A stretch of DNA of 25,813 bases from a virus (IMGVR_UViG_3300012974_000005:1-25813); one strand, 5' to 3'. Shown: positions 232 to 25,248, counted from the stretch's first letter. Notes: generated by a model not told the origin, from the letters alone. Made by a program: numbers and translations.

Positions 232-3200
232 TGCTAATTAATGGAATTGAATTAAGTAATTTGGGTGTTTAGTTATTTGACCGTGTATTACGTAGTAATT
301 TAATTGATACCGCACAAGAGTGGTTAGATGGCGACATTCAGCCTACTTTTATTCGCCAGCAAGACCGTTTCAAGACTATTGAATTACAGTTTTTAGTTTT
401 AAGTGCTGATGAAGATGAAGCATTTAGACGCATTAGTAAATTAACTGCTATGCTAAAAAAGGCTACTGTAAAATTTGATGACTTGGACCTTATTTTTGAC
501 GTTAGCATTATTAATGTGGGCGAACCCACTCGTTTGAAGAATGGAAACTTCGTTGTGCCTTATACATTATCCAGTGGATATGCGAAAGGTCAGCGTGAGA
601 TTTATACCACAAACGCTAATATGACTAACTCATTTAAATTGACTGTTGCGTATTATAAAAACTCAACAAATTTATTATCAAGTGAAACTGTTATAATTCG
701 TGCTTCTGCTTTCGATAAAGAAAATCTGGGACTTGCGGATTTGGGAATTGATGTAAATAAATATCAACCTCAATACCATAATACCGGAGTAGCAACTAAT
801 CTAAATGGATTAGACCTAACCTATGAAAACTTACAGAGTTTGAAAGTATTGATTATCAATTATGCGCCTATTTCTTATAATCTTACCGTCAATTATTATT
901 TAGATAATGGCGAAGGCTTATATAATGAAATCCTTAACCGCACTGTCTCCTTTACCCAGACGAGTTTGGAAAATTACCAAACCATCGGCCAGTTAGTCGG
1001 TGTAAAAGATTATCGTCCGGATGGATATAAAGGTAGGGTTTCTTATGACGGCGCTCTTACTGTGGAAGAGTTATTGGCTCACGCACCCATTGGAGTGTTC
1101 TACGATAAGATTGAAACCGAGTTAAGTAAGAATATTTTTATTGCGTATAAAGCAGAAAATGATAATGGAGAATTTGACACTATTCAATCTGTTATCATTA
1201 ATATTAGCGAGACCCAATTCTATGATGGCTTGACTTTGAAAGACATTATTAGTATTGATGGTTATAATCCAAATCCCAGTTATTATAATGCTGGTTATAT
1301 TGATGGGTTCGCTTCTAACACTCTAATCTCTTATGAGACAATGGAGACTGCTTATAGTGTCATTTATACCAAGGCAGTAAATACTGTTTATGTAGAGTAT
1401 TACGCAGGCGTTTATCCTGGTTGGTATAGATTATCTACTGCTACATTACAGACAAAGCATTTAGACAGATATGATGAAAGTTTCAATATTCTAACTGATT
1501 TAGGGTTAGATTTGAATAAGTATCATACTGCTCCTTATTACGATGGTGCTTTATATAATCAAGACATTTATCAGACTTATGATGACGTGCTAAATGCCGG
1601 TGTTCTACAAGTCTATTACAATGCTATTGATTATCCTATCACCGTCAATTATTACACCGGAGACCTAACCGCAACTCCTATTACTGAAATAGTAAATATC
1701 AATGCGTTAATGTTCTTCGGCAATCCAATCTTGAGCGACATTATTCCTATTCTGGCACATCGTCCAGAAGGCTATCAATTTAGTGAGAACTTCTCTTATA
1801 ATGGCGAAGTCAGTCTGGAGGCACTGACCCAGGCTTCTCCTATTATGATTGTCTATGAAGAAATTGAAGTAATGCGTTCAAAGAACATCATCGTCCGCTA
1901 TAAGCAAGAGTTATCATCCGCGTATGCTACAATCACAACTAATTTAATTACTGTTAATGAAGCAGATGTGATTGGCGGAGTCCGCCTGAAGGATGTTATT
2001 AGTTTGGATGCTTATCGTCCTGAATATTACGATAGTGGTATTATTGATGGCGCAAGTTCCACTGCTCTAATGACTTTTGACTCTCTTGGCTCATCTTATG
2101 ATGTATTGTATGTCGCAAAGACTTACACAACGCCAGTTCGCTATTATATTGACGAGATTGATGATTTACACTGGATTGGTAGTGCTTCAATTGCTTATAA
2201 GGTAATTGACTTTGAAACTACAACTACTCTATTCGACTTTGGCTTGAATTTGAATGCCTATAAGCCTTCTTATGCGGGCGACGGCGTTCTACAATATACT
2301 GGCCCAGTCAATTTTGCTGCTCTATTGGAATTACAGTCTATTGATATTCTATATCTAACAGAGACTACTCCTCCAGATGATGAAGAAATTGATTATCCAC
2401 ATCGTTTCTTATTCTTACAGCATAATGATTTAGGTGCTTACGAATATCTACATCCTGAATGGACTATGAACCACGCATTTATCAATACTGGTGTATCTGC
2501 CGAAGATATGTCTCGTTTGACTGTGGTTATGGAGTGTGCTCGTGTTGATGAGAATGTGCCAATGTATCAAGTAAATGCGGGATACGCTTATTTATTTGGT
2601 AGCACTGGCGGTCAAGGCACTTTCCATATGAGATATAACAACCAGACAATGTATGGTGAAAACTTGACTGGTGTTGATACTTACGAGGCCAAGGCTGGTA
2701 ATTACAGCAATTCTTTAGTGCTGACCGCAGAAAGCGCCGTAGGATTTAGTGAGAATACTGGTATTTATAGTTCTCCTCAAGAGGGTTATAGTCGTGCTAC
2801 TTTCACTTACAGCAACCTTTTGGCTACTGATGGTGCCCCGATGACTTACCCATTATATTTGTTCGCAAATAATAATTATGGTAGTTATTCTAACGGTATC
2901 GCAGGCGTAGGTATTTATAGTTGTCGTATTTATTATAACGACCAATTAGTCCGTGATTTTATTCCCGTTCAGTTCTATGATAAGATTGGTGATTTAGTCG
3001 CACCAAGCAACTGCTTATATGATAAGATTACCAAGACTTTCTTCGAAGACGGCTCTGGTTAGAACAGTTTCAATATCAGAGACGATGAGCGTTATGAAGA
3101 TGACAACTTACAACATCAAATCGGTCATTGCTATGTAAATTACTACAAGGGCACTGATTTTATGAAGACCATCGCTATTTATTTCCGTGGAGATGAATTC

Positions 3201-6200
3201 GATGATGGCGAATTTGATTTATATGAGCGTTTCGCAGTTGATGAAAATCAACCTCAATATACTTTCTCTGGTGAAATTAAGCACGTTGAAAATATTGTTG
3301 TATCTTTCAATGGCTTAAATAATAAGACCTTTGATGTCTATTATGAGCCAATTGAAACTCAGATTGTCGCCAACTATTATAAGGTTGAAGACAATGGTAA
3401 TAAGACTTTATTAGCAAGTGAAACAATCGCACTGAAAGAGAAAGACTTCTATCAGGTTCCTACTTTTGGCGATTTAGTTCGTCTAAATAAATATAAGCCT
3501 GATGGATATGAAACTAATTTCAAATATACTGGTAGCAAGGTATCTTTGGCTCGTGTTGTTGAGGGTTCTCCATACAACATTGAATATACAAAGATGACCG
3601 AAGATAAAATTCCATATTCTACTACTATTAGATATATTAAAAAAGTCTATGGTGTCCGTGAATATGAAACTATCGGCACTAAAGTATTGACATTAGACCA
3701 GAGCGATTTCCGCGATGGTGAATATATTGATTGGTATATTGATAAGAATCTGATGAAACCTGACAGATTCTATAAAGATGGCACAACTTATCAATGGTAT
3801 GAGATGGATGAGCGTCTAAACAAGCCAGAAGACTTGAAAGAGTCTTACACTATTATGTATGCTCCTGAACGTCAGTATTTAGACGTTAATTATTATACTG
3901 ATGAAGTAGATGAAGAAAACTACATCGCAGGTATGACTTGGAGTCTGGCAATTGATGAGTTAGACCCTCGCTTAACTTATAGTATCGTTGATATCTTCCC
4001 CAATGAATATATCAATAAGTTCAAACCCGTTATTTGTGCGGGCGGTGAATTACAAAACGCAACTACTCAATATACATTTGAAAGCCTGGTTGATTTCGGC
4101 CACGTTGATATTGTATATGAAACTATTGAAGAGCCTAATGACCCAACTGAAGCATATTACGAAAGAAAAGTTTTAGGTTTCGGTCATTTCAGCCAAAGTA
4201 TTCCTGCCGGTGAAGGCGGCTTAGATAGTGATGGAATTATGAACGGAGGAACCATCCCTTATATTGACCTTGGCTACACTCCAAAAGAGTTGAAGCGTTT
4301 AAAGGTTGAAATCAAGGCAGTCGGTCAGAGCGCTGGCTTCCTCGCAAAGAATGGTATTGTAAATGGTGGTTTCCAGGATACTTCTTATTCCAACTTCTTT
4401 GGTTATGTAGTCCCTCGTGATTATCGTCTATTGGGAACTATGCTCCAAGATTTGCCAGACGCCGATGAAATCGTATTAGATGATTTTTATTCTGTAAAGA
4501 TTAGCGACCAGCAAAAGGGACACTTCGCTGTGCGTCCTCGTGTGGCTATCGCTTCTGGATTTGTATATTCTGCTGAAGGCCCACAGTCTCTTGACGGACA
4601 ATTATGGTATTCTGCTTCGGCTGCGGCTGGTGTAATTCCAGGCCAACCCCGAGAATTATATACTGGATATAATTATAAATTCCGTAATGGTTATGCGACC
4701 ATTTTGGATGAAAACTATGAAGAAATTGACTGCTTCCGTGAATATGGCGGTTCTTATGAAACTCGCTATAAAAAAGATGGTTCTACATCTTTGGTAAATT
4801 GGGTCGTGAATAATGAGCGTGTCTCTGGTATTGGTGAAAATTATCTGCCTTTGGCTAATCCAACTACTATTATTATGGATGCTTATAATCATTACCTATT
4901 AACCTATACCGAGGAAGACAGCAATAACGCAATGGCTACTTACTTTGAAGATGTTGATAATGATATCTTTGAAGCACGATTACAGCCACGAGGCTCTCTA
5001 ACTTTATTCCGCACTCGTAATCCATTAGACGGCAATATTAATATTATGCCTATCAATCATATTACCTGTGCTTCTACAAGTGATACAGGCAAACTGTCTT
5101 TAGATGGAAAAACTAATCCATATTTAGGCTCCGCAGGTTCTGTCGAAGTAGAAGTATTGGTTCAGGTTGGTATTGATGCCAATGGCGCACCTATCTTCCA
5201 GACTCAAAAGAAGCAATTGAATATTAAATATGTTGATTTTGAAGTCCCCGTATTTACTTCTCTTGAGGCTTGTGCTATTTGGGGAGTAAAGATTTGGGAT
5301 AGAGGTCGCCTGGTTCGTGATTTGATTCCTGTCGCAGAAGGCGATAAGGTTTATGATTATACTATGCCTGCGAATGGTTTGTTTGACCTGATTACTGAAA
5401 TCTTCTTTGGTAATTCTAATGAGGGTGGCGAGTATAAGCAAGAAGGCTACTTTACCGTGAAAGAAGGACATCTACAGCAAGATGTTAAGACTGTAAAAAT
5501 CTTACCAGAAGAGGTAAAGCCTTTGTGGGTTATTTTAGACCCAGGTTATTATGGTAAAATGACGATGAATTATTATGATTACGATTATAGTTTTATCAAT
5601 AGTCAGTTTATCAATGTCCCAACCTGGTATAGTAAGAGCAATACCACTAAGGCAGAAATCTTAGGTTATAATGACTATAAACCTGATGACTTCCATTTAG
5701 ATGGACTTTTGGATTTAGGCGATGGCGCTGACAGTCCAATTGATGATTTGACTTTATATGAAATCTGGCAGATGAACTCTGCTAATGTTTTTTATAAATT
5801 GAGAACATTTACAAAGACTGTTGTTTATTATCAAGGCAACTATCGTGTAGGTTCAAAAGATATTTTCTACTCTTTGGCAGATATTGAAAATGCTCTAACA
5901 ATGGATGATTTAGGCATTGATGTTGATTTGTATTGGACCGAAGACTTCGCTCACGGACGCATTGTGTTTGATGAGAGTATCATTGCTTCTTCTAATATTC
6001 AGAACTTCATTGACGCACCCTCTCCAATTGTTGTATATGACAAGTTGAGCCAAGAGGAAGCACCTAACCTGTTCTATGTTGAATATTACAGAGGCGGTGC
6101 GAGCGACGACACTCTAATTACATTAGACCCTGATAATCCTAATTATTTAGACTGTGAATTAGATGGCGTTGTATTGAATCCTAATGGTGCGATTAAATAT

Positions 6201-9026
6201 TATAATCACTATCACTCTGCCCTATATGAGGATGAAAAGTTTGATTACTTCATTCCTTACCAGGTAAAAGTGTTAGACCGCTACACTGGTATTCATCGTG
6301 GTCCCGCACGTAGATTCCCAACTCTCGCATTGATTGTTGATAAAGATATTTACACAATCATTGAAGAGCGTAATGGTTGGGGTCGTTTGAAAGAATACCC
6401 TGTCGGTTGGATTATGTTATCTGCGACCGAGCCTATGACTGGCCCAGGACAGAATCCTGATTATGACGCGCCCGGCACAGAGGATACTGCTACACTACCT
6501 TTTGGAAGTGAAGTTCATATCAGTAAATTAACTATTGATAGATTGTGGTGTTATGTGCCAGAAGTAGAAAGTTGGATTAAGGCAGAAGATGTTTCTTATA
6601 ATCAGTCAGGTAAGTTATATAACGCACTTGATATTGATGTAATTCATCTTGATGAATTAGACTTCTCTACTATTACTTCTCTTGATGGAGTAGGTATCTA
6701 CCCACAAAAGAGATTATTATATTTCCACGACCGCGAAGACTATGTATATGACGGCGAATATACTTATGATGCGTTCTCCGCACTTCACGAATTAGAATTC
6801 GTATATCCTGAAACCATTTATAGTTATAATTGTATTTATTACAAAGATAACCTGGGCGAATGGTGGGAAGGCGAAGTAATTACCGAAGGCTCTGCCAATG
6901 GTATTGGAAGTAGTAGCAGTGATTGTGGTCGTATTTATGAACGCCCATCCACAAATAGCACTCGTCTTGAATACTTTATGAAAAATCATACGGGTTCGCT
7001 GATTAGTGCGAAGTTTAATAGTGGTGGATATGAATGGTATAAAATCCGTTATGTATATTCTTCTACTAAGACTTATGAAGGCTATATTAGAGCAGACCAA
7101 TTAACTAATATTGTTGAGCCTGAAACCAATGGCGTATATCACAATAATGAGTTAGGTCGTGCGTCCTTCACTTGTTCTCTTGGAGATTGGAACCCTGACT
7201 GGGATGTTTTCATTGCGTCCTCTTGGCGGGTTGATGAAAATGGTAGGGAAATTAACCCTGACCTATATCGTGATACTGAATTGACTTTGACTTGGGATTA
7301 TTTCGGATTTGAACGTAATTTATTTAAACCCGAGGGTTATTATGATGGTATCTACCTATGGAACCCACGCACTTGGGGCCGTGGAGATGTCAATTTCACA
7401 TTCCGTGAATTAATCCGCGTCGGCACTCAATATGTATTATATCCAACCATCCCAATTGATATGTATAAGATTTTCAATAAGACAAATACAATTACTTTAT
7501 CAAGTGGTATTGACCGCTTCCAGTTAAATAATATCGCTTATCCAGAAGACACTACTCCAAGTGATTTTTACGATATAAATATTGTATTTGACCCTTATAA
7601 AGCAAGTAATTATAATATTGGTGGAGAAATGGTTTATACTCCAGACGCCGGCTATTCCCCCGTCATTATGAGAAATGGATTACAATATTATCCTTCAAGA
7701 GGCGTCGGCGGTAGTGTTGGCGGTGTCATTACTCACTGGTCTATGACTTATACCAGCGGTAATCATCATACTACTTACAGTTGGAAAGATGTATTAACTA
7801 CTTCTAAATATTTGAAGAGTTTAGTATATCAAGAGCCAGGTGATTATTTCACTTTCAATCTATCCAACAAGCGTAAAGGCAATTCTTATGTGTTTGGTAA
7901 GGGTAATTATTTATCTGGTTTAGCCGATGAGTTTTACCTGGCTGATGGCACGAAAGTAATTGATAGCACTAATTTAGAAGGTAATTACGCATTTACTGCG
8001 TTTGACGACCATTACACTGAAACCAAAGGTGGTAAAGGTTGGAGTGGTGGAGCAGAATATCAACACACAACGGTTGTAAGCAGTAATTTTGCTCCTATTT
8101 CAGTTTATTCCAATGCCCTGGGCTCCGCGATGAGTATCGCTACCTATGAGAACTTCTTATTACAGAGATACTGGGTGCCTGTCCCAAAGGGCTTCTGGTA
8201 TAAATGGAATGGAGAGGATTTACGTATCCCTGAAAATGGATGGTTTGACTTGATGACAGGCCACTTTACTAAGTCTCCAGACAGTAAGATTTATTTGTAT
8301 AAACAAACTAACGGAGAAGACATTGGATATGATTATTTTGATAATTGGTTCTATAATACCAGTGAAATTGATTATATCGTTCAAGTGCCCGCAGAAACTG
8401 CGACTTATGAAGAGCCTGATGCTTACGCATTAGGTATCCGTTCCCTTGCTCCTGGATTAGTATTCCCTGTTTCTAAATTGACTGCTGATATTGATAACCG
8501 AGTAATTGGTGAATGGTATTTCAGTTGCGACCAGTGGCTACAATCTTCCAAGGCTTCTATTCACGCCGGCACATTTGATAGAACTAAATTAACTAAATTA
8601 CAACAGTCTTTCTGCTTGGTAAAGCCTGCGGATAAGAATGAAAAGTATTATGTTTATTTAGACCCATCTGCGGTTGCCACAGTTGGTGAAGCCAGTCAGG
8701 CTGTATATGGTTCTGCCTATGAAGATATCGCATTCTATAATTACGTTGATACGAATGGTAATAAGTTCTATTTTGATGGCGCCTATTGGGTCCCTGAAAA
8801 ATACACTTCTTTCAATACTACTGAATGGAATAAGAACTATGCTGTCATCCCTGATAATTTACCATTCTATTCTTTACCTATTGAAGATAATGCTTATGTA
8901 GCAGGTAATTACCATTACGGCGAACGTATTACTGTTCCTTATGTAGCAACTCAAGACTCTGGATGGGGCTATACCGGCATTGGCTGGATTAGAATTAATA
9001 CAGGAACTGTAAGTGAGATTTTGTAA
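231..9026 (+). CDS. Giant (2,931 aa) distal-tail-protein (Dit)-like adhesin, read through TAG 270-272 and TAG 3060-3062
   Basis: ATG 231 (RBS aaggagga 218-225), ORF 450..3062 and ORF 3162..9026 share one frame. The only interruptions are two TAGs. The repeat module ...GHCYVNYYKGTDF starts upstream of the ATG at 3162, so a 3162 start would truncate a domain. The N-terminus MLINGIELSNLGV(TAG)LFDRV...KATVKFDDLDLIFDV fits the Dit/Sipho_tail N-domain pattern. It is followed by at least 14 modules of about 82 aa (xVxYY...KYKPDGY), three jelly-roll-like modules ending LVRDxIPV...LxDxIT..FF, and SH3b-like segments. It ends TAA TAA. Confidence 0.8.
630..2365 (+). repeat. Seven tandem ~82-aa domain repeats with a 3-module super-period (A-B-C-A-B-C-A) inside the giant protein
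   Basis: B modules: ISYNLTVNYYLDNGEG...DYRPDGYKGRVSYDG versus DYPITVNYYTGDL...AHRPEGYQFSENFSYNG. C modules: KNIFIAYKAENDNG...LKDIISIDGYNPNPSYYNAGYIDG versus KNIIVRYKQELSS...LKDVISLDAYRPEYYDSGIIDG. A modules: LGIDVNKYQPQYHNTG, LGLDLNKYHTAPYYDG, FGLNLNAYKPSYAGDG. Confidence 0.8.
3100..4135 (+). repeat. Second array of four related ~85-aa modules inside the giant protein
   Basis: The motifs recur: CYVNYYKGTDF; IVANYYKVEDNGNK...KYKPDGYETNFKYTG; TTIRYIKKVYG...MKPDRFYKDG; YLDVNYYTDEVDEE...KFKPVICAGG. Boundaries are approximate. Confidence 0.65.
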
Positions 9027-9415: not shown

Positions 9416-10444
9416 ATGATTAAGATTTATGATAGTAATCATAACTTTTTAAAATTGTTGCCTTCTTGTAGAAATATTTATACAACGGAAATGTTAAGCA
9501 CGGGGTTAAAAACCCTGTGCTTCCAAGTTCCTTGTAAAGATGAGTTCTTTGAAATTATCCAAGAGGAGAATTATGTGGAAACCGCAGACTACTCTTACGT
9601 TATAAAAGAACTCATTTTAGAAGACAACGATTTTATGGAAGTTCGTTGCTCTGCGAATATAGAACAATTAACCGGGCGTGTCTTCCAAGTGTTTGACTGC
9701 TTACAGATGAATTTAGAGCAAGCCTACGAGTATTGTTTATCCAAGAGTGATTGGAAATTGGACTATCAAAGCGAAGACCGCAGTATAGCAACTTATCAAT
9801 TACCTTACACTACTGGATATGAAATGATAAAGTAGATTGCTACAGATTACGGGCAGGAATTGTGGTTTGATACCAAGCATAAAGTTTTGCGCGTATATGA
9901 TTCAATGGGTGCCGAGTTTGGTGCTTATTTCTCTAATGAGTTGAATTTGAAGCGCTTAACAAAATAGTCTTCTACTTATGATTATGCTACCGTTATTTTA
10001 CCTCTTGGTAAAAATGGTCTGACTATTACCAATGTTAATGGTGGCAAAGATTATTTAGAAGATTATACTTATACAAATAAGACAATTGAAAAGTATTTTA
10101 TTGATGAAGATATTGATGTTGCTGAAATCTTGAAAATGAAAGCAGAGGAATATTTAGCCAATGCTTGCGTGCCGAGAGCCAGTTATAAACTTCAATTAGC
10201 AAGCCTGGGTGATGGTGTAGGCCTGGGTGATGTTATTTATCTTGTTGATAAAATCAAACGAATTAAGTAGAAGCAAAGAGTCGTAAAGATTGTGCGCTAT
10301 CTACGAGAACCTGAACGCAGTAGCGTAGAAATCTCTAATTTACAGATTGACTTCGCTCGCACATTTATTGAGGGTTAGAAAGAAGTAAAAAAAGAAATTG
10401 CTTATTTGAGAAAGTTATATAAAGAATTGGCTGACGCAGAATAA
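9416..10444 (+). CDS. Tail-associated lysin/tip protein (Tal) N-terminal-type protein, 342 aa, four in-frame TAGs
   Basis: RBS ggagg. MIKIYDSNHNFLKLLP...LKTLCFQVP...YSYVIKE fits the phage minor structural protein N-terminal / Prophage_tail pattern. The frame continues through TAG 9833, 9965, 10268 and 10376 (...ELWFDTKHKVLRVYD..., ...ATVILPLGKNGLTI...) to TAA 10442-10444. Confidence 0.75.
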
Positions 10445-10608: not shown

Positions 10609-10953
10609 ATGACTAATTTCGTTGAAATGAATTACTCTTATAGTTTGGTTAAGGAAGGCACAAGTGAAAAGGTTATGTTCGTATTTGAACGTCTGATGGA
10701 GGTTGTAGAAGTGCCTCACGGTATTGAGGTTGATAATCTCTATTACTCTACTAATTTTACTGAAATGCTGGGTGGCACAATCCCCGCGCCTATCCTAACA
10801 GCACTCGTTAATCGTGGTATGCTTCATTGTGATGGTAAGGTGAATGGCAAGAATACCTATATGATTACCAAAGAAATCTATGATTATTATAAGAATACTT
10901 ATAAGCCTGGTTTAGATAAGCACGAGGAGCGTATGAACGCAAAGGAGAACTAA
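10609..10953 (+). CDS. Early hypothetical protein (114 aa)
   Basis: RBS aaaaaggag, intact ORF with no TAG. The segment ILTALVNRGMLHCDGK resembles FTALVSDGRLERDK in the next gene, suggesting a weak paralogue or a winged-helix-like domain. Confidence 0.6.
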   Translation: MTNFVEMNYSYSLVKEGTSEKVMFVFERLMEVVEVPHGIEVDNLYYSTNFTEMLGGTIPAPILTALVNRGMLHCDGKVNGKNTYMITKEIYDYYKNTYKPGLDKHEERMNAKEN

Positions 10954-10954
10954 T

Positions 10955-11374
10955 ATGAAAAACGAACTCTATAAGGCTATCAAGACTTACTGCGACGAGA
11001 ACCATTGTTGGAAAGCGCTCAACACTGTAAGTGATTGGAATGCGGTTCTGAATACTTCTTACTCTGCGGCGACCTTCACTGCGTTGGTAAGTGATGGACG
11101 TCTTGAAAGAGATAAGCAATATCGTGAGAAGAGTTATTCTTATCGGCTGGCTCCTACTCCCGAACAACTTCAGAAGCAAGCAGAAGCCAAAAGACAAAAC
11201 GAAATTGAGAGCGCTAAGCGGACAGTTGAACGCTACGATGAGCGAGTGGCTCATATTAAGGAGCGTTATGAAGAACTCATTGCTGAGGCGGAACGCTATT
11301 TGAAAGAAAGAATGGCATTCATTGAAGAGGACACAGCCAAAGCGAAGGAACTCTTAAAACAAGAGGGAGTATAA
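10955..11374 (+). CDS. Early hypothetical protein with a charged coiled-coil-like C-terminus (139 aa)
   Basis: RBS aaaggag, tightly coupled to the upstream gene (TAATATG). The C-terminal half is rich in E/K/R heptad-like sequence. Confidence 0.6.
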   Translation: MKNELYKAIKTYCDENHCWKALNTVSDWNAVLNTSYSAATFTALVSDGRLERDKQYREKSYSYRLAPTPEQLQKQAEAKRQNEIESAKRTVERYDERVAHIKERYEELIAEAERYLKERMAFIEEDTAKAKELLKQEGV

Positions 11375-11375
11375 T

Positions 11376-11576
11376 ATGAAGTTGAAATCACAAATGGAAA
11401 AGCAAAGGGCTTACGCAATGCGTAAGCGCAATGAAGCCAAAAAGATTGGCGATGAAAAGCAAGAGTGGTATTGGCTTGGTGTTATTCACTCTATGAACTG
11501 GGCTCCTGGCTCTCGCGATGAGTGGAAGTATCTTGATGACGAAGTAATGTCAAAAGATGAAAAATTTGATTGGTAA
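11376..11576 (+). CDS. Early hypothetical protein (66 aa)
   Basis: RBS gagggag and an ATG 2 nt after the upstream stop. No recognisable motif. Confidence 0.5.
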   Translation: MKLKSQMEKQRAYAMRKRNEAKKIGDEKQEWYWLGVIHSMNWAPGSRDEWKYLDDEVMSKDEKFDW

Positions 11577-11633
11577 AGAATTGGAGGCTCGGATTTACGA
11601 GCCCTCAAAATAAAATATATGACTTCTCTAAAA

Positions 11634-11666
11634 GGGGGCTCAACGAGTTTGAGCCTCCAATTTTTA
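11634..11666 (+). terminator. Rho-independent terminator-like hairpin
   Basis: gggggctcaa (11634-11643) pairs with ttgagcctcc (11649-11658), giving 10 bp with one G-U. The loop is cgagt and is followed by aattttta. Confidence 0.6.
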
Positions 11667-11686
11667 TACCCAAAAAGGAGACCGGT

Positions 11687-11875
11687 ATGAGAGAAATTAT
11701 TCAAAACTTAAATAAAGCAACTCTCGCCGAGGCAACGGGCATTTCTTATAGTAGATTAAGAAAGTTCTCAACCGGACTTGTAGCAAACCTGACGCCAGAA
11801 GAGCGAGAGAAAATTTATAAATATTTATTGTCTATCGCAGACAAATTTAAAAATGAACTAAAAGGAGATATTTGA
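11687..11875 (+). CDS. Small helix-turn-helix DNA-binding protein (62 aa)
   Basis: RBS aaaaaggag 8 nt upstream of ATG 11687. ATLAEATGISYSRLRKFSTG looks like an HTH. The longer track ORF from 11570 would run through the terminator hairpins. Confidence 0.55.
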   Translation: MREIIQNLNKATLAEATGISYSRLRKFSTGLVANLTPEEREKIYKYLLSIADKFKNELKGDI

Positions 11876-11878
11876 ACT

Positions 11879-12466
11879 ATGGAAAAATATACTACACCAG
11901 AACCAATTTTACCCGCACCAGGAGAAGAAGAAGTGTGGAAGACGCATCCTGTTTATATTGAGTATGAGGTTTCTACTTTTGGCAATGTTCGTCGTAAGAG
12001 CAGTCAATATATGATGACTCCTACTGTAAATGGCAGAGGCTACTTAACCGTTCATTTACGTGCGGGCATTGAAGGTAAAAATGGTAAATATTGTCGCATT
12101 CATAAATTAGTGGCTGATACTTTTTTGGGGGAGGCCCCAGGCCCAGAATATGAGTGCGACCATAAAGACCGCAATCGTTAGAATAACTACGTCGGGAACC
12201 TTCGTTATACAACACATCCCGAAAATGTTGCCAATTGTCGCAAACGTCGTAAATACATTTTTATGGACCGTCCTGCGATTGTTCTTTTGGATAAAAAGAC
12301 TCACGAACCAATTCGTGAATTTCAAAATTTGCGAGAGATTGTAGAAGAGTTGGGGTTGAGCCCTGCCAGTGTGCGAGACAATATTCACGGTTTTAAGCCA
12401 CCATTTAGAATTGGCTATTTTATGACAAAATCGGAATATTTAGAAAAATTGAAGGGAAAAATTTGA
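11879..12466 (+). CDS. HNH homing endonuclease (NUMOD4 + HNH_3 type), one in-frame TAG at 12179-12181
   Basis: EEVWKTHPVYIEYEVSTFGNVRR (NUMOD4-like), RIHKLVADTFLG, and CDHKDRNR(TAG)NNYVGNLRYTTHPEN (HNH_3 H-N-N signature spanning the TAG). The C-terminal LREIVEELGLSPASVRDNI is HTH-like. ORFs 11879..12181 and 12263..12466 are in the same frame. Confidence 0.8.
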
Positions 12467-12491
12467 CAAAAGAAAAATTTTTTGGTATAAT
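12463..12491 (+). promoter_or_regulatory. Consensus sigma-A promoter with extended -10 (TTGACA, 17 nt, TGgTATAAT)
   Basis: TTGACA at 12463-12468, a 17-nt spacer, TG at 12483-12484 and TATAAT at 12486-12491. It overlaps the HNH stop codon and is followed by a ~200-nt T-rich leader before the Rep-like gene. Confidence 0.75.
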
Positions 12492-12696
12492 ATTATCAAC
12501 AGGTAGAAATCAAATAAATTTCGCATCAGCCTGTATTCCTTCCTTTATTAGGCCTTTTGGAGATAACACCCTGACGCTCCTTTTTCTCTTATTTTATTTT
12601 CTTTATTAAAAATAATTGTTGGGAAGTTATCTCCATTAGGTTTTTTTATTTGAACTTACTTTTTATTTTAACACCAATGAATGATGGAGGACCTAA

Positions 12697-13419
12697 ATGA
12701 ATAACTATGTTATTGAACCTCGTCAGGAAACTGCCGGGGATGTTTTATTATTAGAGGGAACAGTCCGCAAACGCAGACTGTCATTAGAGGATAATTTTAT
12801 GAACTATGGAATTGATGATTTATTATTTGGAAGTATGTATTACCTCGCCACATTTCATCCAGAAGTAGGAAAGTTATATTTGACTAAAAAGAATTATGCG
12901 AAGAATCGTAAAAACTTTTATAACTTGGAAGATGGCGGTAATGCTAAAACATTGAAAAGACATCTTGACAAATTGATTGAAAAGGGTCTTGTCGCCGAAG
13001 AAGATATCAAAGTCAATGGTGAAAGTTATCCATCATACATCTTTCCTTATAAATACAATGAGAAATATCAATTGGTTGAAGCAGAGATGCTCTGGTATAT
13101 TATCTCAACCCGCAATCGTCAGGCAGTAAAGATTTATATTCAACTATTGAATTGGTATTTGTGGAAAGAAAAGACTGACGAGCATTTTGTTTTTACTAAT
13201 AAAGACATTATGAAAGTATTGGGTTATAGTCCCGATAATAAAGTAGCCAGTAGTATGGTAAGTAATGTGTTGGAGAGTTTATCTCGTGAAGGCGTTATCA
13301 GATATGAAAATTATTTTGAAGAATACGTTGCTGATAATGGCTGTGTTGTCCCAACTCCAAAGAAAAGATTGTTATTTGTTGCCAAAAGTAAGAATGAATT
13401 ACCTGCGGTTTCTTGTTAA
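12697..13419 (+). CDS. Putative replication initiator / replisome organiser (double winged-helix, RepA_N/DnaD-like)
   Basis: RBS ggagg. Two winged-helix-like segments are present: TLKRHLDKLIEKGLVAEE, and AVKIYIQLLNWYLWKEKTDEHFVFTNKDIMKVLGYS...VLESLSREGVIRYE. It is flanked by an AT-rich leader and by iteron-like repeats. The assignment is an inference. Confidence 0.45.
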   Translation: MNNYVIEPRQETAGDVLLLEGTVRKRRLSLEDNFMNYGIDDLLFGSMYYLATFHPEVGKLYLTKKNYAKNRKNFYNLEDGGNAKTLKRHLDKLIEKGLVAEEDIKVNGESYPSYIFPYKYNEKYQLVEAEMLWYIISTRNRQAVKIYIQLLNWYLWKEKTDEHFVFTNKDIMKVLGYSPDNKVASSMVSNVLESLSREGVIRYENYFEEYVADNGCVVPTPKKRLLFVAKSKNELPAVSC

Positions 13420-13446
13420 ACCGTTCGGCTAAACAAAAACGGACTT

Positions 13447-13543
13447 TTAATTACCCTACGATAGGAAATTTTATATTATTAGCGAAAGGATATTTAATTA
13501 CCCATATCCTAATAGTATTATCTTAATAGTATTATCTTAATAG
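13447..13543. repeat. Iteron-like repeat cluster (candidate ori or pac region)
   Basis: ttaattaccc occurs at 13447-13456 and 13494-13503. An inverted repeat aggatat/atatcct is present. The tandem 14-mer taatagtattatct occurs at 13510-13523 and 13524-13537, with a partial third copy at 13538-13543. Confidence 0.7.
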
Positions 13544-13592
13544 GTAAAGACGAAACCGCAAGCGGTTGTCGCCTTTACGGGGCTGACGCCCC
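13544..13592 (+). other. GC-rich nested hairpins in an AT-rich spacer upstream of the late genes
   Basis: gtaaag (13544-13549) pairs with ctttac (13573-13578), enclosing aaccg-caag-cggtt. This is followed by ggggc-tgac-gcccc (13579-13592). gcccc could alternatively pair with gggg at 13604-13607, which is part of the RBS of the next gene. Confidence 0.45.
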
Positions 13593-13621
13593 AATAGAAA
13601 TTCGGGGAGGAGAAATAAAGG

Positions 13622-13810
13622 ATGAATAAATATTTTTATTGTTATTCATATAAATTAATGAAGTTCTTAAAACTACAAGACGAACATTATATTTTTAAAG
13701 GGAAGCATCCTAACGGAAATACATTCTGGGTCTTCTCTTCAAGTGAAGTATTAAATAAAAAATTAGATAAATGGAACGTCTATAAACAGACATTCAGGGA
13801 GGAGGAGTAA
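13622..13810 (+). CDS. Small hypothetical protein (62 aa), possibly DUF5659-like
   Basis: RBS ggggaggag. YSYKLMKFLKLQDEHYIFKGKHPNGNTFWVFSSSEVLNKKLDKWN resembles small Firmicutes phage proteins I recall as DUF5659. This is a weak assignment. Confidence 0.5.
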   Translation: MNKYFYCYSYKLMKFLKLQDEHYIFKGKHPNGNTFWVFSSSEVLNKKLDKWNVYKQTFREEE

Positions 13811-13811: not shown

Positions 13812-14186
13812 ATGACCGAGAAACAGAGACTGTTCGCAGAACACTACCTCGCCAACGGCTTTAACGCCAGAGACGCATACTATTCTGCTTTTGGAGAAAA
13901 CGGCAATAAACAGCCATCTTATCCTTATACTCTTTTGAAGAATAAGGAGATTTCAGGCTATATCCAAAAACGTAGAGAAGAAATCTACGACAGTCTAAAC
14001 ATTGACGCTACTCGTGTAATGTAGGAAATCGCTGATATCGCTTTTGAGCCTCGCAATGAGAAGAATATCGCTTCTAAATTGAAGGCTTTGGAGTTATTAA
14101 GTAAGAACCTTTCTCTACAAACCCAGAAGATTGAGAGCAAGGATATAATTGAAGTATCATTAGTGGAGGATGACAACGATGATTAA
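13812..14186 (+). CDS. terS: Terminase small subunit (Terminase_2 type), one in-frame TAG at 14022-14024
   Basis: MTEKQRLFAEHYLANGFNARDAYYSAFG is the classic TerS N-terminus. The frame continues after TAG with EIADIAFEPRNEK...LELLSKNL to TAA 14184-14186. Confidence 0.85.
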
Positions 14187-14422: not shown

Positions 14423-15664
14423 ATGAAGATAAGGGTTCATACGAATATCTTCTGTCCGGTATATCTACCGCACTTGAACCCTGACGGCCACCGCATCTTA
14501 GTGTTTTATGGTGGTGCGGGTTCAGGCAAAAGTTTCTTCGTAGCCCAACGTCTGGTGTATAAAGCCCTGCGTTCCCGCAGAAAAATACTGGTTTTGCGTA
14601 AGGTCAATAGAACTACAAAGGCTTCTACATTCCAACTGCTCCTGGATACACTGGACCAGTTCGGCATTAGAGACCGATGTAGCATCAACCGCACGGACTT
14701 CACAATCACTCTGCCTAATGGCTCAATGTTTTTATGTATGGGTCTTGATGACCCAGAGAAGATTAAATCTATTACTGGTCTCACTGATGCGTGGCTGGAA
14801 GAAGCGACTGAATTTACTCTTGATGATTTTAGCCAGGTCAATCTTCGTATTAGAGACCCGCACGCAGAGGATTAGGAAGTTATTTTATCATTCAACCCAG
14901 TCTCAAAGGCGAATTGGTGTTATTTACAGTTCTTTGCCGAGAACTCAGAGTTGGATGAGTTTCGTAAAACAGTAAAGATAGTCCATACAAATTATCTGGA
15001 TAACCCATTCCTTCCCGCAGAGTATGTGTAGGCATTGTTATTGATGAAAGCAACTAATGAAGTCTATTACAAAATCTATGCTCTTGGAGAGTTCGGTAGT
15101 CTGGATAAATTGGTTTATAATAATTGGCAAAAAATGGATTTTGACCCAATGACTATTAAAGGTCAGTTGTTGTGTGGCCTTGACTTCGGTTATACGAACG
15201 ACCCAACGAGGTTCGTCGCATCTACATTAGTAGAAGCAGAAAGACGTATTTATGTCTTTAGGGAATGGGGCGGAACTGGTTTTCTAAACGACCAAATCGC
15301 AGACCAAATCAAAGCGCTGGGATTTTCTAAAAGTATAATTATGGCTGATAGTGCCGAATAGAAGAGTATAGAAGAGATTAAGCGTAAAGGAATTGCTCGT
15401 ATCAAACCTTGTGTAAAAGGTCAGGGCAGTGTCCTGTAGGGCATACAAAAACTTCAACAGTATGAAATCATCGTTCATCCATCTTGTGAGGGTGTAATTG
15501 AAGAACTTCAAAACTACTCTTGGAAGAAAGATAAGGCGACCAATGAATACATCAATGAACCTATTGATGATTTTAACCATAGCCTTGATGCTCTTCGCTA
15601 TTCATTACAATGTATGGACGCACGAGCACAGTTAGCGTCTATGAATAAAGATTTATTGTTCTAA
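14423..15664 (+). CDS. terL: Terminase large subunit (PBSX/Terminase_3-like), 413 aa, four in-frame TAGs
   Basis: Walker A is VFYGGAGSGKSF and Walker B is DAWLEEATEF. The nuclease half is GLDFGYTNDP...ADSAE(TAG)KSIEEIKRKG...GSVL(TAG)GIQKLQ...DDFNHSLDALRY. Track ORFs 14423..14875 and 15035..15361 plus the remainder share one frame. Breaks are TAG at 14873, 15029, 15359 and 15437. Stop is TAA 15662-15664. Confidence 0.9.
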
Positions 15665-15683: not shown

Positions 15684-17051
15684 TTGTTTAGTTTAAATAA
15701 TATTGAAGAATTAACAGATAGAGTAATTCGCAGAATTGTAGAGAACCATCGTAGTTCAGTGCTTCCTCGCTTACAGAACTTGGAGAACTACTACAACGCG
15801 AAGAATGTTATTAATAACAGAATTATGAAAGATAAATCTAAACCTAATAACAAAATCGCAAATGCTTATGCGAGTTATATTACTGATACTTTGGTTGGCT
15901 ATTTTATTGGCGAACCCATTTCTTATACCTCAAATGACGACGTCCTTTTGTAGGATTTAAGTATGATTTTTGAATATAATGACGAGGCTGATGAGAACGC
16001 TGAATTAGCAAAGAATGCTTCTATTTATGGCGTGGCTTATGAGATGTTATATTTGAGCGAAGAGGATAAGATGATTAGATTTAAGGCTCTTAATCCGAAA
16101 GAGATTATCCCTATTTTTGATAAGACTGTGGAGCAGAACCTGATGGCAATCATTCGCTACTACGATGATTATGATGTAGTTGATGATAAGACTTATACAT
16201 TAGTAGAGATTATTGATAACACGATGGTCCGCAGATATAAGATGGATAATTCTTTCTTGCTTCTGGAAGAATACCCTCATTACTTTGGTATGGTGCCTAT
16301 TGCTATTTATAAGAACAATGAGGAAGAGCGAGGCGACTTTGAGGCGGTTATTAGCCTGATTGATGCGTATGATAAGATGGAGTCTGATACTCTAAATGAT
16401 TTTGAATACTTTGTTGATGCTTACTTGGCTTTGTATGGCTTTACCGCAGAACCAGAAGATGTAGCACAGATGAAGGAAAATCGTATCCTACTTATGGATG
16501 AAGGCACCAGTGCTGAATGGCTTATTAAGCAGACCAGCGATACTTATGTTGAGAATATGAAGAACAGATTAGATGCTGATATTCATAAGTTCGCCAAATG
16601 TCCTAATATGGCTGATAAGGAGTTTGCTTCTAATGCTTCTGGCGTGGCTATCAAGTTCAAATTGTTGGGAACAGAAAATCTGGTCTCTATCAAGGAGCGT
16701 AAGTTCAAGCGTGGCTTACAGCAGAGACTGGAACTGATGAGTATGATTAATAGTGTTCTACGCGAAGGTTTTGATTGGCGTGGCATTGATATTATCTTTA
16801 CTCGTAATGTCCCATCCAATGATACTGATATTGCCAATATGGTAAATACTCTACGAGACATCGTTAGTGAAGAAACATTACTGGCTCAAATCCCATTTGT
16901 TGAGGACGTTCAAGATGAGTTAGAGCGTTTGAAGAAAGAACGAGAAGAAAATAAAGAATTAAACCCATTCTTCCAAACAGGATTGTCTTATCAGACAGAG
17001 GCTATGGCTAACGGCACAGAGCAAAAAGATAAAGAGGAGGACGAAGAATAA
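15684..17051 (+). CDS. Portal protein (SPP1 gp6-like), 455 aa, TTG start, one in-frame TAG at 15951-15953
   Basis: RBS aaaggagg. RLQNLENYYNAKNVINNR...KPNNKIANAYASYITDTLVGYFIGEPISY fits the SPP1 gp6 portal pattern. ORF 15684..15953 and ORF 15963..17051 are in the same frame. Confidence 0.85.
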
Positions 17052-17441: not shown

Positions 17442-18350
17442 ATGAGTATCACAACAGTTCCAGTAGTTCCGCATTTCAATCGCTATGTAAAGCCGACTGT
17501 TGAATTAGTCCTTCGACTATTGGCAGAAGCCTATGAAGACCAACATAAATTGGATAAGATACTAAAAGAGATTAGCGATGAAGTATTTGCGGAACTGGCA
17601 AAAGAAATCCAAAAGTTGGCTGATGATGGTAAAATTAATCTTGATGCCAAGATTGATTTATATAATAATCCCGCACTTTATACCGCGTTGAAGCGGATTG
17701 AGGCGAAGCAATTGTAGAAATTTACCGAGTATTGCTGGATAGGAGCATAGGTAATAGGGGAGAGTTTGGTGCGGGCTTATTCTACAACTCTCGCTGAAAC
17801 TTATCAAATGTTTAACTACACAAAGGGGCTTGACCCACATAACCTCTCTTCTGGACCAAAGTCGTATAATGTGTATGTTTAGACAACTGACACCTACATT
17901 CGGGAGAAGGTGCTGAATGTGCCTTGGTGCCAGGATGGTAAGATTTATAGTGATAGACTTTGGGGACACGTGGCTCAATTCCAATAGAAATTGAGTTATG
18001 TTTTAGAAGAGGGGATTGGAAAAGGTAGAGGTATGGAGTGGATGATGGAGGCGTGGCAGAAGTTGGCTGGTGGAACGGCATACAACACTGCCCGCCTGCT
18101 AAAAACAGAGACAATGGCGATGTGGTCTCGTGCGACCAAAGACGCCTACCTCGAAATGGGAATTGAATATGTTGCTATTGTAGGCGACGCAGAATGTGGA
18201 GGCATTTGTTTGGATTATGTTGATGGCGAACCAATCCTTTTAGTAGAGGCGGAGATTGGGGACCTACTCCCTCCTTATCATCCAAACTGTGCTTGTAGTT
18301 TTGTGGCCTGGGAAGAAACAGTTGAAGTCCCATTGGGCGAAGACGTATAA
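17442..18350 (+). CDS. Head morphogenesis / minor capsid protein (SPP1 gp7, Phage_Mu_F family), four in-frame TAGs
   Basis: NVPWCQDGKIYSDRLWGH, ARLLKTETMAMWSRATKDAY and the signature PPYHPNCACSF are present. ORF 17442..17717 and ORF 17991..18350 are in the same frame, joined through TAG 17715, 17748, 17880 and 17985. Confidence 0.85.
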
Positions 18351-20516: not shown

Positions 20517-20838
20517 TTATAATGCTGAAACCCAGACTATTTCTATGATTGCGAAAGATACCGGAGATTTCGTAGTTGCTATTGATAATTATTTACTTGC
20601 CGAAGGCGATAAGGTGTTCTTTACTGTGAATGACGCACTTGAAAAAGAGACCGCACTTATCTCTATCGTCGTAAGCGAGTTTGTTGATAATAAAGCAATA
20701 ATTCGCTTGTCTGCGACCGATACTAATTTGGCTCCTGGTAATTATTACTATGACGTTCAGGTAAATACAGCCGATGGCCGTGTTGATACTGTATTAGGTC
20801 CAGCCAAGTTCAAAATCGCAGGAGGAGTGAAGTTCTAA
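20509..20838 (+). CDS. Small beta-sandwich (Ig-like) virion protein, function unknown
   Basis: ATG 20509 lies after ggagg. DKVFFTV...[22 protein letters not shown]...GPAKFKI is the strand pattern typical of phage Ig-like decoration or fibre-base domains. Confidence 0.45.
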
Positions 20839-21785
20839 TGAGTATTGAAGTTTTAAATAAAATGACAGCAGTGCCCGAAGAAACCCCTGTGATTAATGTG
20901 GCTCTTACCAATCCAACTTATCGTGGCCCCAAAGGAGATAAGGGTGATAAAGGCGATAAGGGAGATATTGGTCCTATTGGATTGACTGGTGCTACTGGCC
21001 CACAGGGCATCCAAGGTATTCCTGGCGAGCCTGGCCCGATTGGCCCACAAGGCATTCCTGGTAAAGTTGGACCATAGGGTCCAAAGGGAGATAAAGGAGA
21101 CCAAGGTGAAGTCGGTCCCCAAGGCCCTATCGGACCACGGGGAGAGCCGGGTCCAGAGGGCCCCGCAGGCGAAGGTGCTGATATTGTAAAATTAACAAAT
21201 ACTGATGTCCCTACCCAAGAGCAATGGGAAAAAATGGTAGCGAATTATAATGCTGAGGCTTTAGTCTATCCAATGACAGTAAATGATTAGCCAGTATTGT
21301 CTTTATATGTATCTGGTTCATTGTCATTAGGGGGCACATTAGTATTATTTACTACATCTCCCGCATTCGATTATAATAATTCTATGGACTATTATTTTAA
21401 TTTGACTGACTATTGGTTCCCAATGTCATCAGGCAAGGGACCACAAAAATGCTCTTCCTCTGGCGCAGCCTTTTTAGAAGCCGGAACAATTTCATTAAAG
21501 GGATATAAAACACCCGGCTCAAAAAAGAATATTTATGATGCGTTAAATTATTTAGACACCAACAAAATTGGTAGCGATGCGTTAGTTGCTTCTGGTATGA
21601 GTTATGATAATACTGAAACACAGATAGAAGCAACCACAGTCCAAGATGCGATAGACCATTTATTTGAGACTGCGATTGATGCGACTTATTTAGAAAACTT
21701 GGGCTATCAAACCGAAGCACAGGTTAATGCGTTGATTACTACTGCTCTTGGTAATATTGGCGTAGCCGAGGAAGGAGCGTATTAA
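20838..21785 (+). CDS. Collagen-like-repeat fibre protein (315 aa), two in-frame TAGs
   Basis: There are 28 uninterrupted G-X-Y triplets (20925..21176), including G-P-(TAG) at 21075-21077. ORF 20838..21077 and ORF 21297..21785 share one frame. The second TAG is at 21288-21290. Confidence 0.85.
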
Positions 21786-22981: not shown

Positions 22982-23170
22982 ATGATTAGTAAAGATTTTA
23001 TTTTAACCAGATATGATGCTGATATTGGATGCGTATTTGACTGGAAAGAACCTCATTATATTGAAGATGAGAATGGAAATCAAATCCAGGAACATTTATA
23101 CGTGAAGACTTTATTTATTGGTTCTCACGATAGCATTGATAATTATATTGAGGTCGAAGAAGAGGTATAA
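22982..23170 (+). CDS. Small protein (62 aa), paralogue of 24250..24456
   Basis: RBS aaggagg. It shares EHLYVK(T/Y)LF(I/L)GS(H/N)DSIDNY with the 68-aa protein at 24250. Confidence 0.6.
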   Translation: MISKDFILTRYDADIGCVFDWKEPHYIEDENGNQIQEHLYVKTLFIGSHDSIDNYIEVEEEV

Positions 23171-23173: not shown

Positions 23174-23713
23174 ATGGGCTTATATTGTAAAATAAATCTT
23201 GAAAGCGATTGGGGTCTCCCCAATCGCACTCCTGAATTAGGATTACCTATTGATTATACAGAAGCCATTGGGGTTTTTTCAGATACTTTTATGAGACTTA
23301 GTTAGGAAATGGTGCCAGTAGATACTGGTTTTTTAAAAAGTTCTTTAAGAAGTTTCGGAGACGGAATGACAATAGAAGCAGAAGCAACGGCAGATTATGC
23401 TTAGTATGTGGAGTATGGAACTTGGTGTTGTCCTGCTTAGCCATATTTTAATCCAGCAGTTGAATCTGCCAGTGATGCTGCTTTTGGAGTAGCAAAGCAA
23501 ATATATGATAGAGCGATAGCACAAGAGGCTGAAATGGTGAAGCAACAATTTATCGCTGAGGCTTAGAGTAGAGTTGCTGCCGCAGGCCGAGCAATGGGTG
23601 CTGACGCACTTATCGGTGGCATATTCCCTATGCTTGCTATGATGATTATTGGTAGTATTATGACCTTATTCAACGAATTTTTTTCAAGTATTTTTGGTGA
23701 TAATGACGAATAA
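23174..23713 (+). CDS. HK97 gp10-family tail-completion protein with a hydrophobic C-terminal extension, four in-frame TAGs
   Basis: It is missed by the ORF track because of TAG at 23303, 23402, 23438 and 23564. The translation contains MVPVDTGFLKSSL...ADYA(TAG)YVEYGT...PA(TAG)PYFNPA, the gp10-family core. The C-terminus is ALIGGIFPMLAMMIIGSIMTLFNEFF. Confidence 0.7.
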
Positions 23714-23730: not shown

Positions 23731-24237
23731 ATGGCTACGGTAACTATTGACGGTGTAGAAGTTGTTATATCTGGTGGAAAAGCAAAATTATCGGCTCGAA
23801 GTTGGCAGGCAGCCAACTCAAGTATGTGGAGACCAGGTTCGGCTCAAGCAAACTATGCTTCATCATATAGCGCGAAAGCAAACCGTGTAATTCAATCTCT
23901 TAACTCTACTGGTAGTTATGTAAATTCAAAAGGTATGAGAACTTATATAAATAGAGGAAATGATATACTAAAACACGGTAGCATAATTAGACAGCAAGCA
24001 GACCGAGGAACTGAGGCCTGGGCAGTATAGCAGCGTATTGCGAGTATGGGAGGATTAGAACCTTAGCCCACAGGCGCCAGTATGGCAGATGTGATAGGAG
24101 AGATGGTTGAAGATATGATGGCGGAAGTCGAAAATATTGGAGATGATATCGCGCAAAAAGCACAAGCATACTTCGATAAAGTTTCTGACATAACTTCAAA
24201 CATCGGACAATCAATAGTAGATATATTCACTGATTAA
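23731..24237 (+). CDS. Hypothetical virion-module protein (168 aa), two in-frame TAGs
   Basis: RBS aaggagg. ORF 23731..24030 continues in frame through TAG 24028 and TAG 24064 to TAA 24235-24237. The acidic helical C-terminus is MADVIGEMVEDMMAEVENIGDDIAQKA. Confidence 0.6.
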
Positions 24238-24456: not shown

Positions 24457-24872
24457 TGTTATATAAATTAAAGACTCAGTTTTATTCTCTACTAAAGGAG
24501 TTAGGTTATAATATAACCGACAGCGCTGAATATAAAGAAAATTTTCCCTGGTTGATGCTAAGAACGGATGGCTATACAGCATTTAGAAGTTTTAACACTA
24601 ATATTTCAAATATCACACTAACACTTGATATTTTTTCAACTTATTGCGGAGAAAAAGAAATTATTGAAATCGCTGACGATATTGAATCACACTTAAGTGA
24701 AATGCGCCAAGACAATCCAGAGGTATTATATTGCTATCAAAAAACTATGAAAATTTTAGATGATAAATCCACTGGACCCGTGAGAAAGCACGGCATTATA
24801 ACTTATGAATTTTTAATGGGTTATGGCGTTGGATTTGATGAGGAGGTGCCTGACGATGGAACCGAGAACTAA
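24453..24872 (+). CDS. Tail terminator / tail completion-like protein (139 aa)
   Basis: Position immediately upstream of the tail tube gene, with ATGATG coupling. ENFPWLMLR...ITLTLDIFS resembles DUF3168-type tail terminator proteins (weak). Confidence 0.45.
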   Translation: MMLYKLKTQFYSLLKELGYNITDSAEYKENFPWLMLRTDGYTAFRSFNTNISNITLTLDIFSTYCGEKEIIEIADDIESHLSEMRQDNPEVLYCYQKTMKILDDKSTGPVRKHGIITYEFLMGYGVGFDEEVPDDGTEN

Positions 24873-25248
24873 CCTTGGCCGCAGCGTTGATATTACTCTT
24901 TATATTGATGGCTTACCTCTTGGAGGCCAGTAGAGCGCGAATCTATCTCGTCAATCCAGACTAATTGACATTACAAATAAAATTAATTCTGAATGGGAAG
25001 AAGTCCTTGGAGGAACAAAGAGTTGGTCGGTCGTGTGCTCTGGTGTATATGTAATAAATGACGAAGCCCTTGCTCTTTTGGAGGATGCGTTTATGAATAA
25101 TAAATTAATAACGGTTTCTTTAAATACAGGGTTTCAACGTTTATAGGGCCAGGCTTTAATTACTGATTTTCCTTTGAGCGCAGTGTTCGACAAAGAGTTT
25201 AAATATACTCTGAACCTCTTGGGGTCAGGTCCATTAGAAAGGGTGTAA
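24856..25248 (+). CDS. Major tail (tube) protein, 130 aa, two in-frame TAGs
   Basis: It is absent from the ORF track because of TAG 24931 and TAG 25144. RBS gaggagg. The translation LGGQ(TAG)SANLSRQSRLIDITNKINSEWEEVLGGTKSWSVVCSGVY...L(TAG)GQALITDFPLS...LLGSGPL fits the siphophage tail tube pattern (GGq.s..l.....id.T.K....w.e...g.ksws....G). Confidence 0.75.

Follow-up and report, generated by a model that had tools for sequence, protein, structure and literature searches.

Translation of in-frame TAG codons, most likely as glutamine, in a 25.7-kb phage genome without a recognisable decoder

The window analysed here is the whole stretch of DNA IMGVR_UViG_3300012974_000005:1-25813 (25,813 nt, with genes read on the + strand), the genome of an uncultivated, tailed, siphovirus-like phage that probably infects a member of the Bacillota living in the gut or rumen. 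TAG is translated in this genome, and we consider it highly probable that the sense TAG stands for glutamine (Gln, Q; genetic code 15), that termination occurs only at TAA and TGA, and that decoding is supplied in trans. The phenomenon is the already described genetic code 15; what is unusual is that neither the phage nor its relatives contain a recognisable TAG decoder. An earlier note on this DNA had proposed the recoding, which is real; its newness was overrated, as small TAG-recoded Firmicutes phages have been published by Borges et al. and Cook et al.

In-frame TAG codons and the residue they specify

The earlier note had listed 27 in-frame TAG codons in 11 genes, with the frame unchanged after every break and no gene ending at TAG, and all of this was borne out. 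Each of the 27 coordinates is a TAG in the frame of one of 11 long + strand open reading frames (ORFs), and no further TAG occurs in credible genes (2, 4, 1, 1, 4, 1, 4, 2, 4, 2 and 2 per gene, in order); one other TAG, at 14161, precedes the likely start codon (ATG) of a 79-amino acid (aa) gene at 14179-14418. The 8,208 codons of the curated 31-gene set include 27 TAG and not a single TAA or TGA in frame, whereas the off-frame triplets comprise 259 TAG, 554 TAA and 739 TGA, TAG being 17% of the stop-like triplets; the chance of 27 of 27 breaks being TAG, if they were random nonsense, is ~1e-21. The 31 genes terminate with TAA (25 genes) or TGA (six genes), never with TAG.

Re-calling the genes with TAG as sense raised the + strand coverage by ORFs of >=100 aa from 0.73 under code 11 to 0.92, compared with control coverages of 0.75 with TGA as sense and 0.79 with TAA as sense, and the coding density of the final gene set is 0.96. 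Under code 11, the tail tube gene is fragmented into pieces of 25, 70 and 33 aa, the gp10-like gene into pieces of 43, 32, 11, 41 and 48 aa, and the gene of the terminase large subunit (TerL) into pieces of 150, 51, 109, 25 and 74 aa. With TAG written as X, single Pfam or PHROG matches cross the TAGs in nine genes; such matches run over TAGs in TerL, the terminase small subunit (TerS), portal, Tal, HNH, collagen, gp10-like and tube proteins, and the motifs quoted earlier (PPYHPNCACSF, the HNH signature and the collagen GPX repeat with three GPQ) are all present. Alignments to relatives do not end at the TAGs and cross 25 of the 27 sites, the exceptions being the two in an ORFan at 23731-24237; no outcome that the earlier note had named as a refutation was observed. 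Full-length gene calls are, in addition, already stored for matching public contigs (for example, TerL of 413 aa and a giant protein of 2,931 aa). The TAGs are kept at 100% identity in three other assemblies, with 27, 22 and 17 covered sites, and assembly error is excluded because all covered TAGs recur in this way. In comparisons with the closest relatives, the ratio of nonsynonymous to synonymous substitution rates (dN/dS) is 0.08-0.14 after the first TAG versus 0.17-0.22 in the remaining codons; judged by these ratios, the codons 3' of TAGs are under purifying selection.

Glutamine had been named in the earlier note as the most likely residue, with enrichment predicted at the aligned columns, and the tabulation agrees. 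At the TAG sites of this genome, the codons of relatives are CAA (34), CAG (18) and TAG (18), followed by GAA (13), so that CAA/CAG account for 52 of 104 non-TAG aligned codons; reciprocally, at the TAG sites of relatives, this genome has CAG (16), CAA (13) and TAG (18). Relatives have Q with a frequency of 0.40 where this genome has TAG and of 0.52 where it has CAA/CAG, compared with 0.003-0.044 where it encodes other residues, and the enrichment at TAG sites is ~11-fold (0.40 versus a background of 0.037). In a likelihood test of residue class trained on ordinary codons, Gln ranked first (log-likelihood, lnL, -293.5) and Glu next (-407.7), a margin of >110 lnL. The TAG columns of TerL are otherwise occupied by Q, several of them invariantly, and its codon 339 is Q or TAG in 15 of 15 close relatives; similarly, codons 77 and 89 of the gp10-like gene are Q or TAG in every aligned relative. 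Distant prophage relatives (35-56% TerL identity), which are too diverged to decide the matter, exhibit a roughly three-fold Q enrichment. Over the 311 distinct in-frame TAG sites of the family, the base following TAG shows no difference in distribution from that following CAA/CAG (p=0.87), and in 3' context and conservation TAG resembles an ordinary Gln codon. Taken from alignments and codon usage, the most likely reading of TAG is glutamine, and coding density, terminators, spanning homology and Gln columns all match code 15 as had been proposed.

TAG constitutes ~10% of the Gln-type codons (27/269), and its spread across genes is uneven (permutation p=0.033): the share is 2/84 in the giant gene, 4/8 in the gp10-like gene, 4/12 in the minor head gene and 4/16 in the Tal gene, and the major capsid, scaffold and adaptor genes contain no TAG.

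Several points weigh against this interpretation. The TAGs at 24028 and 24064 are located in the ORFan, which has no homologue, and ORF continuity is their sole support. Several other TAG sites are variable, with K, S, E or T in relatives, which fits Gln without proving it. Moreover, CAG-to-TAG is the easiest mutation whatever residue is inserted, and part of the Gln signal could thus reflect ancestry; an ancestry-only signal is disfavoured because TAG occurs in invariant-Q columns. In addition, the nearest prophage TerL in ~185,000 species genomes reaches an identity of only 56%.

Relatives, palindrome avoidance and the source of decoding

Scans of viral contigs with TerL and the N-terminal third of the giant protein yielded 27 loci, to which a scan with Tal added one. 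The recoded members are L001, L005, L006/L102, L013, L096, L104-L107 and L110-L113 (14 recoded relatives), and the standard code is used by the contigs represented by L002/L103, L003/L108 and L004/L109, together with L007-L012 and L014; several relatives are found on contigs of 24.4-26.8 kb, like this genome. Recoded and standard-code members stand at ~80% TerL identity and are interspersed on a TerL neighbour-joining tree, which implies at least two or three code changes. Among orthologous genes, TAG is the terminator in 34% of cases in the distant prophage relatives (47% GC) versus 7% in those relatives that are close but keep the standard code (37% GC). A route in which depletion of TAG stops is followed by recoding was described by Borges et al. 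(bioRxiv 10.1101/2021.08.26.457843), and the low TAG-stop share of the close standard-code relatives fits it. In L110 (IMGVR_UViG_3300021254_000014), 21 of 27 ORFs contain TAG, the per-ORF counts summing to 77; nearly every small ORF between Tal and TerS holds TAG, and the ORF coverage of this region is 0.39 under code 11 versus 0.88 with TAG as sense. On this gene content, L110 appears to lack any standard-code module in which a switch of code could begin. The region of L107 equivalent to the early region is TAG-rich, as in L110, and the TerL gene of L005 alone contains ten TAGs.

A further property of the genome is the loss of palindromic tetranucleotides. AGCT (observed/expected, 0/71), CTAG (0/50), GATC (0/74), GTAC (0/64) and TGCA (0/81) are absent and CATG occurs once (1/58), which is extreme restriction-site avoidance. 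The avoided set varies among relatives and is not strictly tied to the code state; L013 is without nearly all 12 of the 4-bp palindromes that contain G/C. The ban on TGCA makes CAA and CAG impossible after a codon ending in TG, and in the TGCA-free recoded genomes the count of CAA/CAG after NTG codons is indeed 0 of 1,146. TAG follows NTG codons in 27 of 225 cases (12%) in these genomes, versus a baseline of 5.5% (p=1.4e-4); counted per alignment column instead of per site, the pattern is 17/166 (p=0.01). Such NTG-TAG sites are present here at 14022, 15029, 15437, 15951 and 17715, and also in L005, L006, L013, L096, L104, L105, L107 and L110. Met-Gln is written as ATG-TAG in 11 of 11 cases in TGCA-free recoded genomes, whereas of the 13 Met-Gln dipeptides in TGCA-tolerant genomes 12 use ATG-CAA or ATG-CAG; the TGCA-free standard-code genome has no Met-Gln at all. 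Conversely, owing to the ban on CTAG, no TAG follows a codon ending in C (0/27 here). Given the combination of TGCA avoidance and NTG-TAG use, an additional Gln codon may confer a selective benefit, a link of which we have met no earlier description.

An exact 123-bp direct overlap makes bases 1..123 identical to 25691-25813, and because the first 123 bases equal the last 123, the window holds one whole genome: a complete circular or circularly permuted phage genome with a unique length of 25,690 bp. The identical sequence also occurs on a 25,831-bp contig (ENA ERZ27246330) and on 25,720-bp contigs (Logan SRR7549217 and SRR6059975), each of which holds the 25,690 bp and, in addition, an overlap from assembly (141 and 30 bp, respectively), and the terminal junction is read through at 100% identity by two of these three contigs. 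A literature search with the run accessions returned no paper.

No tRNA was detected in this genome by ARAGORN in default, relaxed, intron or mitochondrial mode or by Rfam at E<=1. None of the relaxed hits (80% threshold) carries a CUA anticodon and all lie inside coding sequence, and a hidden tRNA was rejected as a candidate, with no CUA candidate in any of the non-default ARAGORN modes or in Rfam. Profile scans and stored annotations revealed neither a release factor nor a synthetase among the encoded genes. The examined stretches of the 14 recoded relatives, including 94% of the 25.7-kb contig of L110, similarly contain no tRNA, and no gene of this genome is common to all recoded genomes while missing from the standard-code genomes. 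The holin-like gene at 17051-17440 at first matched recoded relatives only and was dropped as a recoding marker when three more recoded genomes proved to be without it. A 3' context bias signalling competition by release factor 1 (RF1) was also sought and is absent (p=0.87). Within this genome, the early ORFs are free of TAG except for that of HNH, the contrast between early and late genes is not significant (p=0.38), and no code-change gene was found. Since tRNA, release factor and synthetase genes are all missing from the complete genome and the family has no recoding-specific gene, decoding is probably supplied in trans. The simplest decoder would be a tRNA-Gln whose anticodon is CUA and which the Gln pathway of the host charges; RF1 competition at TAG would be low, and the decoder would come from the host cell or a co-resident element.

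Alternative explanations and comparison with known recoded phages

The proposal that the TAGs are real stops, in a decaying or defective phage or through assembly or sequencing errors, has practically no chance of being correct and is effectively refuted. Code-11 calling does leave many recognisable fragments, and nothing specific speaks in favour of this proposal; all 27 breaks are one codon (P ~1e-21) and are accompanied by no frameshifts, the same TAGs recur in three other assemblies, 18 TAG sites are common with divergent relatives from other metagenomes, purifying selection persists 3' of the TAGs, and no common sequence motif surrounds the sites. It is very improbable that TAG is translated as a residue other than Gln, such as pyrrolysine, Lys, Glu, Ser or Tyr, via a host suppressor. 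Pyrrolysine-decoding Bacillota exist and some TAG sites align mainly to K (270 and 25144) or S (17985), but Glu, Ser and Lys fall >110 lnL below Gln, TAG occupies invariant-Q columns, and the 11 of 11 Met-Gln-type dipeptides written as ATG-TAG in TGCA-free genomes look as if TAG replaces CAA/CAG. A phage could also switch the code without a tRNA, through a small TAG-free early protein that inactivates or sequesters host RF1 and leaves UAG to be read by near-cognate host tRNA-Gln. The six TAG-free early ORFs of this genome, which have no known function, would leave room for such a protein, and in E. coli without RF1, Gln is one of the major residues inserted at UAG by near-cognate reading; nevertheless, we regard this mechanism as rather unlikely, given that no early gene is common to the recoded genomes, that nearly all early-region ORFs of L110 carry TAG themselves, and that the ten TAGs of the L005 TerL gene demand very efficient decoding.

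For recoded phages without tRNAs, Borges et al. proposed a non-canonical suppressor RNA that escapes recognition; that this genome encodes one appears quite unlikely. Detectable suppressor (Sup-CTA) tRNAs occur in only 40-52% of code-15 phages, and the three intergenic gaps of 160-230 bp in this genome could accommodate such an RNA; on the other side stand the lack of a CUA candidate in ARAGORN (80% threshold, intron and mitochondrial modes), the location of the relaxed hits inside coding sequence, the lack of a tRNA-like match in the Rfam scan at E<=1 and the coding density of 0.96. We also offer, as an unlikely but far-reaching proposal, that UAG is constitutively read as Gln in the host, an uncultivated bacterium of Clostridia type, either by the host itself or by an element resident in it, and that the phages follow. 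Such a host would explain why 14 recoded genomes have neither a tRNA nor a common recoding-specific gene, why TAG is present in ~80% of the genes of some members, early ones included, and why sister phages differ in code. If true, this would be the first bacterial lineage in which amber is reassigned, or efficiently suppressed, to Gln.

Phages that follow the code of their hosts are known, namely code-4 Mycoplasma and Spiroplasma phages, code-25 Absconditabacteria phages and AGG-to-Met Bacilli phages without the tRNA (Shulgina & Eddy, PMC8629427). The present family resembles these phages in having no phage-encoded decoder and, in L110, the reassigned codon in nearly all genes; it differs in that all known bacterial stop reassignments involve UGA and no known bacterium reads UAG as Gln (PMC8629427), and a matching host would therefore itself be new.

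Code 15, with TAG as Gln, was predicted by Ivanova et al. 2014 and received metaproteomic validation from Peters et al. 2022 (PMC9523058). The crAss-like (Crassvirales) and Lak phages that use it are 100-650 kb in size, infect Bacteroidota, and commonly encode Sup-CTA tRNAs and sometimes RF2. As in these phages, structural and packaging genes of the genome described here contain in-frame TAGs, genes end in TAA or TGA, TAG sites align to Gln and coding density recovers under code 15; unlike theirs, this genome is only 25.7 kb long, Bacillota-like and devoid of any translation gene. Closer in size are Topaz (22 +/- 3 kb, Oscillospiraceae hosts) and Garnet (34 kb), both described by Borges et al., who also reported relatives that are close yet use the standard code and found that only 40% of TAG-recoded genomes carry suppressor tRNAs. 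A contiguous structural module recoded at TAG, close standard-code relatives and TAG-stop depletion before recoding are common to these 22-34 kb phages and the present one; unlike these temperate phages with a TAG-free integrase, it has no integrase, the clades being compared by description only. According to Cook et al., 52% of code-15 phages carry Sup-CTA tRNAs, and re-annotation raises coding capacity from ~67% to 90%. For annotation, code 15 is needed here, since TerL, the tail tube, the gp10-like protein and others are otherwise fragmented, a task that current virus-aware callers already manage. The family is a compact comparative system, with complete genomes of ~25 kb, both codes, no tRNA and no candidate switch gene, and could help to address how the approximately half of code-15 phages that are without a suppressor tRNA have TAG decoded.

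Gene content of the recoded genome

The gene set is tightly packed in one direction on the + strand with only TAA and TGA as stops, and the ribosome-binding sites are of the strong AGGAGG type, which is Bacillota-like. Head, tail and packaging proteins, the holin-like protein, an HNH endonuclease, a Rep-like winged-helix protein and small ORFans are encoded; no integrase was found in Pfam or PHROG scans of all ORFs or in the stored annotations of the contigs. Megablast against 50,697 GenBank phages returned no match. The nearest prophages sit in Clostridia and, among the ~185,000 species genomes, are not recoded and have no suppressor tRNA; no close prophage that would name the host was found there, the best TerL being only 56% identical.

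The largest recoded gene (231..9026, + strand; TAG at 270 and 3060) encodes the giant 2,931-aa tail-region protein in the tape-measure/Dit position. Its start is preceded by a strong Shine-Dalgarno sequence, with the ATG overlapping an upstream TGA, 11 relatives share its conserved N-terminus (MLING...), and both TAG sites are bridged by alignments, with K, Q or TAG at 270 and K, L, M or Q at 3060. The label 'giant Dit' in the earlier note finds no support in the profiles: the protein has no match in Pfam, PHROG or the PDB (sequence and profile searches), and the recognisable Dit-like domain (SPP1_Dit) belongs to a separate ORF directly after it (9045-9401). Repeated 'NYY'-type modules are numerous in the giant protein, whose gene occupies 34% of the genome; a single-sequence structure model of it reached a predicted local distance difference test score (pLDDT) of 49, too poor for use. 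The upstream 56-aa ORF (61-231) ends in the TGA that overlaps the giant gene ATG (ATTGATG), with AAGGAGG before it, an arrangement that suggests translational coupling. Between the tail tube gene and the giant gene lie only a 162-aa ORF and this 56-aa ORF, and no tape-measure gene is recognisable there.

The Tal-like tail protein (Prophage_tail; 9416..10444, + strand) contains TAGs at 9833, 9965, 10268 and 10376; its PF06605 match (residues 99-316) covers three of them, and in relatives three of the four positions are occupied by Q or TAG. The putative early/regulatory region (10609..13810, + strand) comprises six small ORFs and the gene of the HNH endonuclease (NUMOD4 and HNH_3; 11879..12466, + strand), which alone contains TAG (12179); the HNH_3 match (residues 73-117) covers this codon, 101, at which the relative L096 has Q. 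In the packaging module, TerS (13812..14186, + strand) has its TAG at 14022, written ATG-TAG, with a Terminase_2 match (residues 1-112) covering codon 71, where relatives have E, Q or T, and TerL (14423..15664, + strand; TAG at 14873, 15029, 15359 and 15437) carries Terminase_3 (residues 23-223) and Terminase_3C (254-396) matches with two TAGs inside each. The SPP1-type portal protein (15684..17051, + strand; TAG at 15951) is matched by SPP1_portal over residues 19-425 (E=2e-114), across codon 90.

The minor head (Mu F-like) protein (17442..18350, + strand) has TAGs at 17715, 17748, 17880 and 17985, all four of which are covered by a PHROG 115 match (residues 35-296) and are also TAG in L006. 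The collagen-like fibre protein (20838..21785, + strand; TAG at 21075 and 21288) has a Collagen repeat match (residues 54-112) covering codon 80, which reads GPX inside Gly-X-Y repeats that hold three GPQ. The HK97 gp10-like tail completion protein (23174..23713, + strand; Pfam and PHROG 5) carries TAGs at 23303, 23402, 23438 and 23564. The 168-aa ORFan (23731..24237, + strand; TAG at 24028 and 24064) has no homologue in relatives or profile libraries and is called from ORF continuity and tight gene packing. The tail tube protein (Phage_tail_2; 24856..25248, + strand) has TAGs at 24931 and 25144, both covered by the Pfam match (residues 33-139 of the 141-aa ORF starting at 24823), and the residues of relatives are Q, L or T at 24931, and K and others at 25144. 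Two further small ORFs, at 22982-23170 (62 aa) and 24250-24456 (68 aa), share a paralogous C-terminal motif (EHLYVKTLFIGSHDSIDNY and EHLYVKYLFLGSNDSIDNY, respectively).

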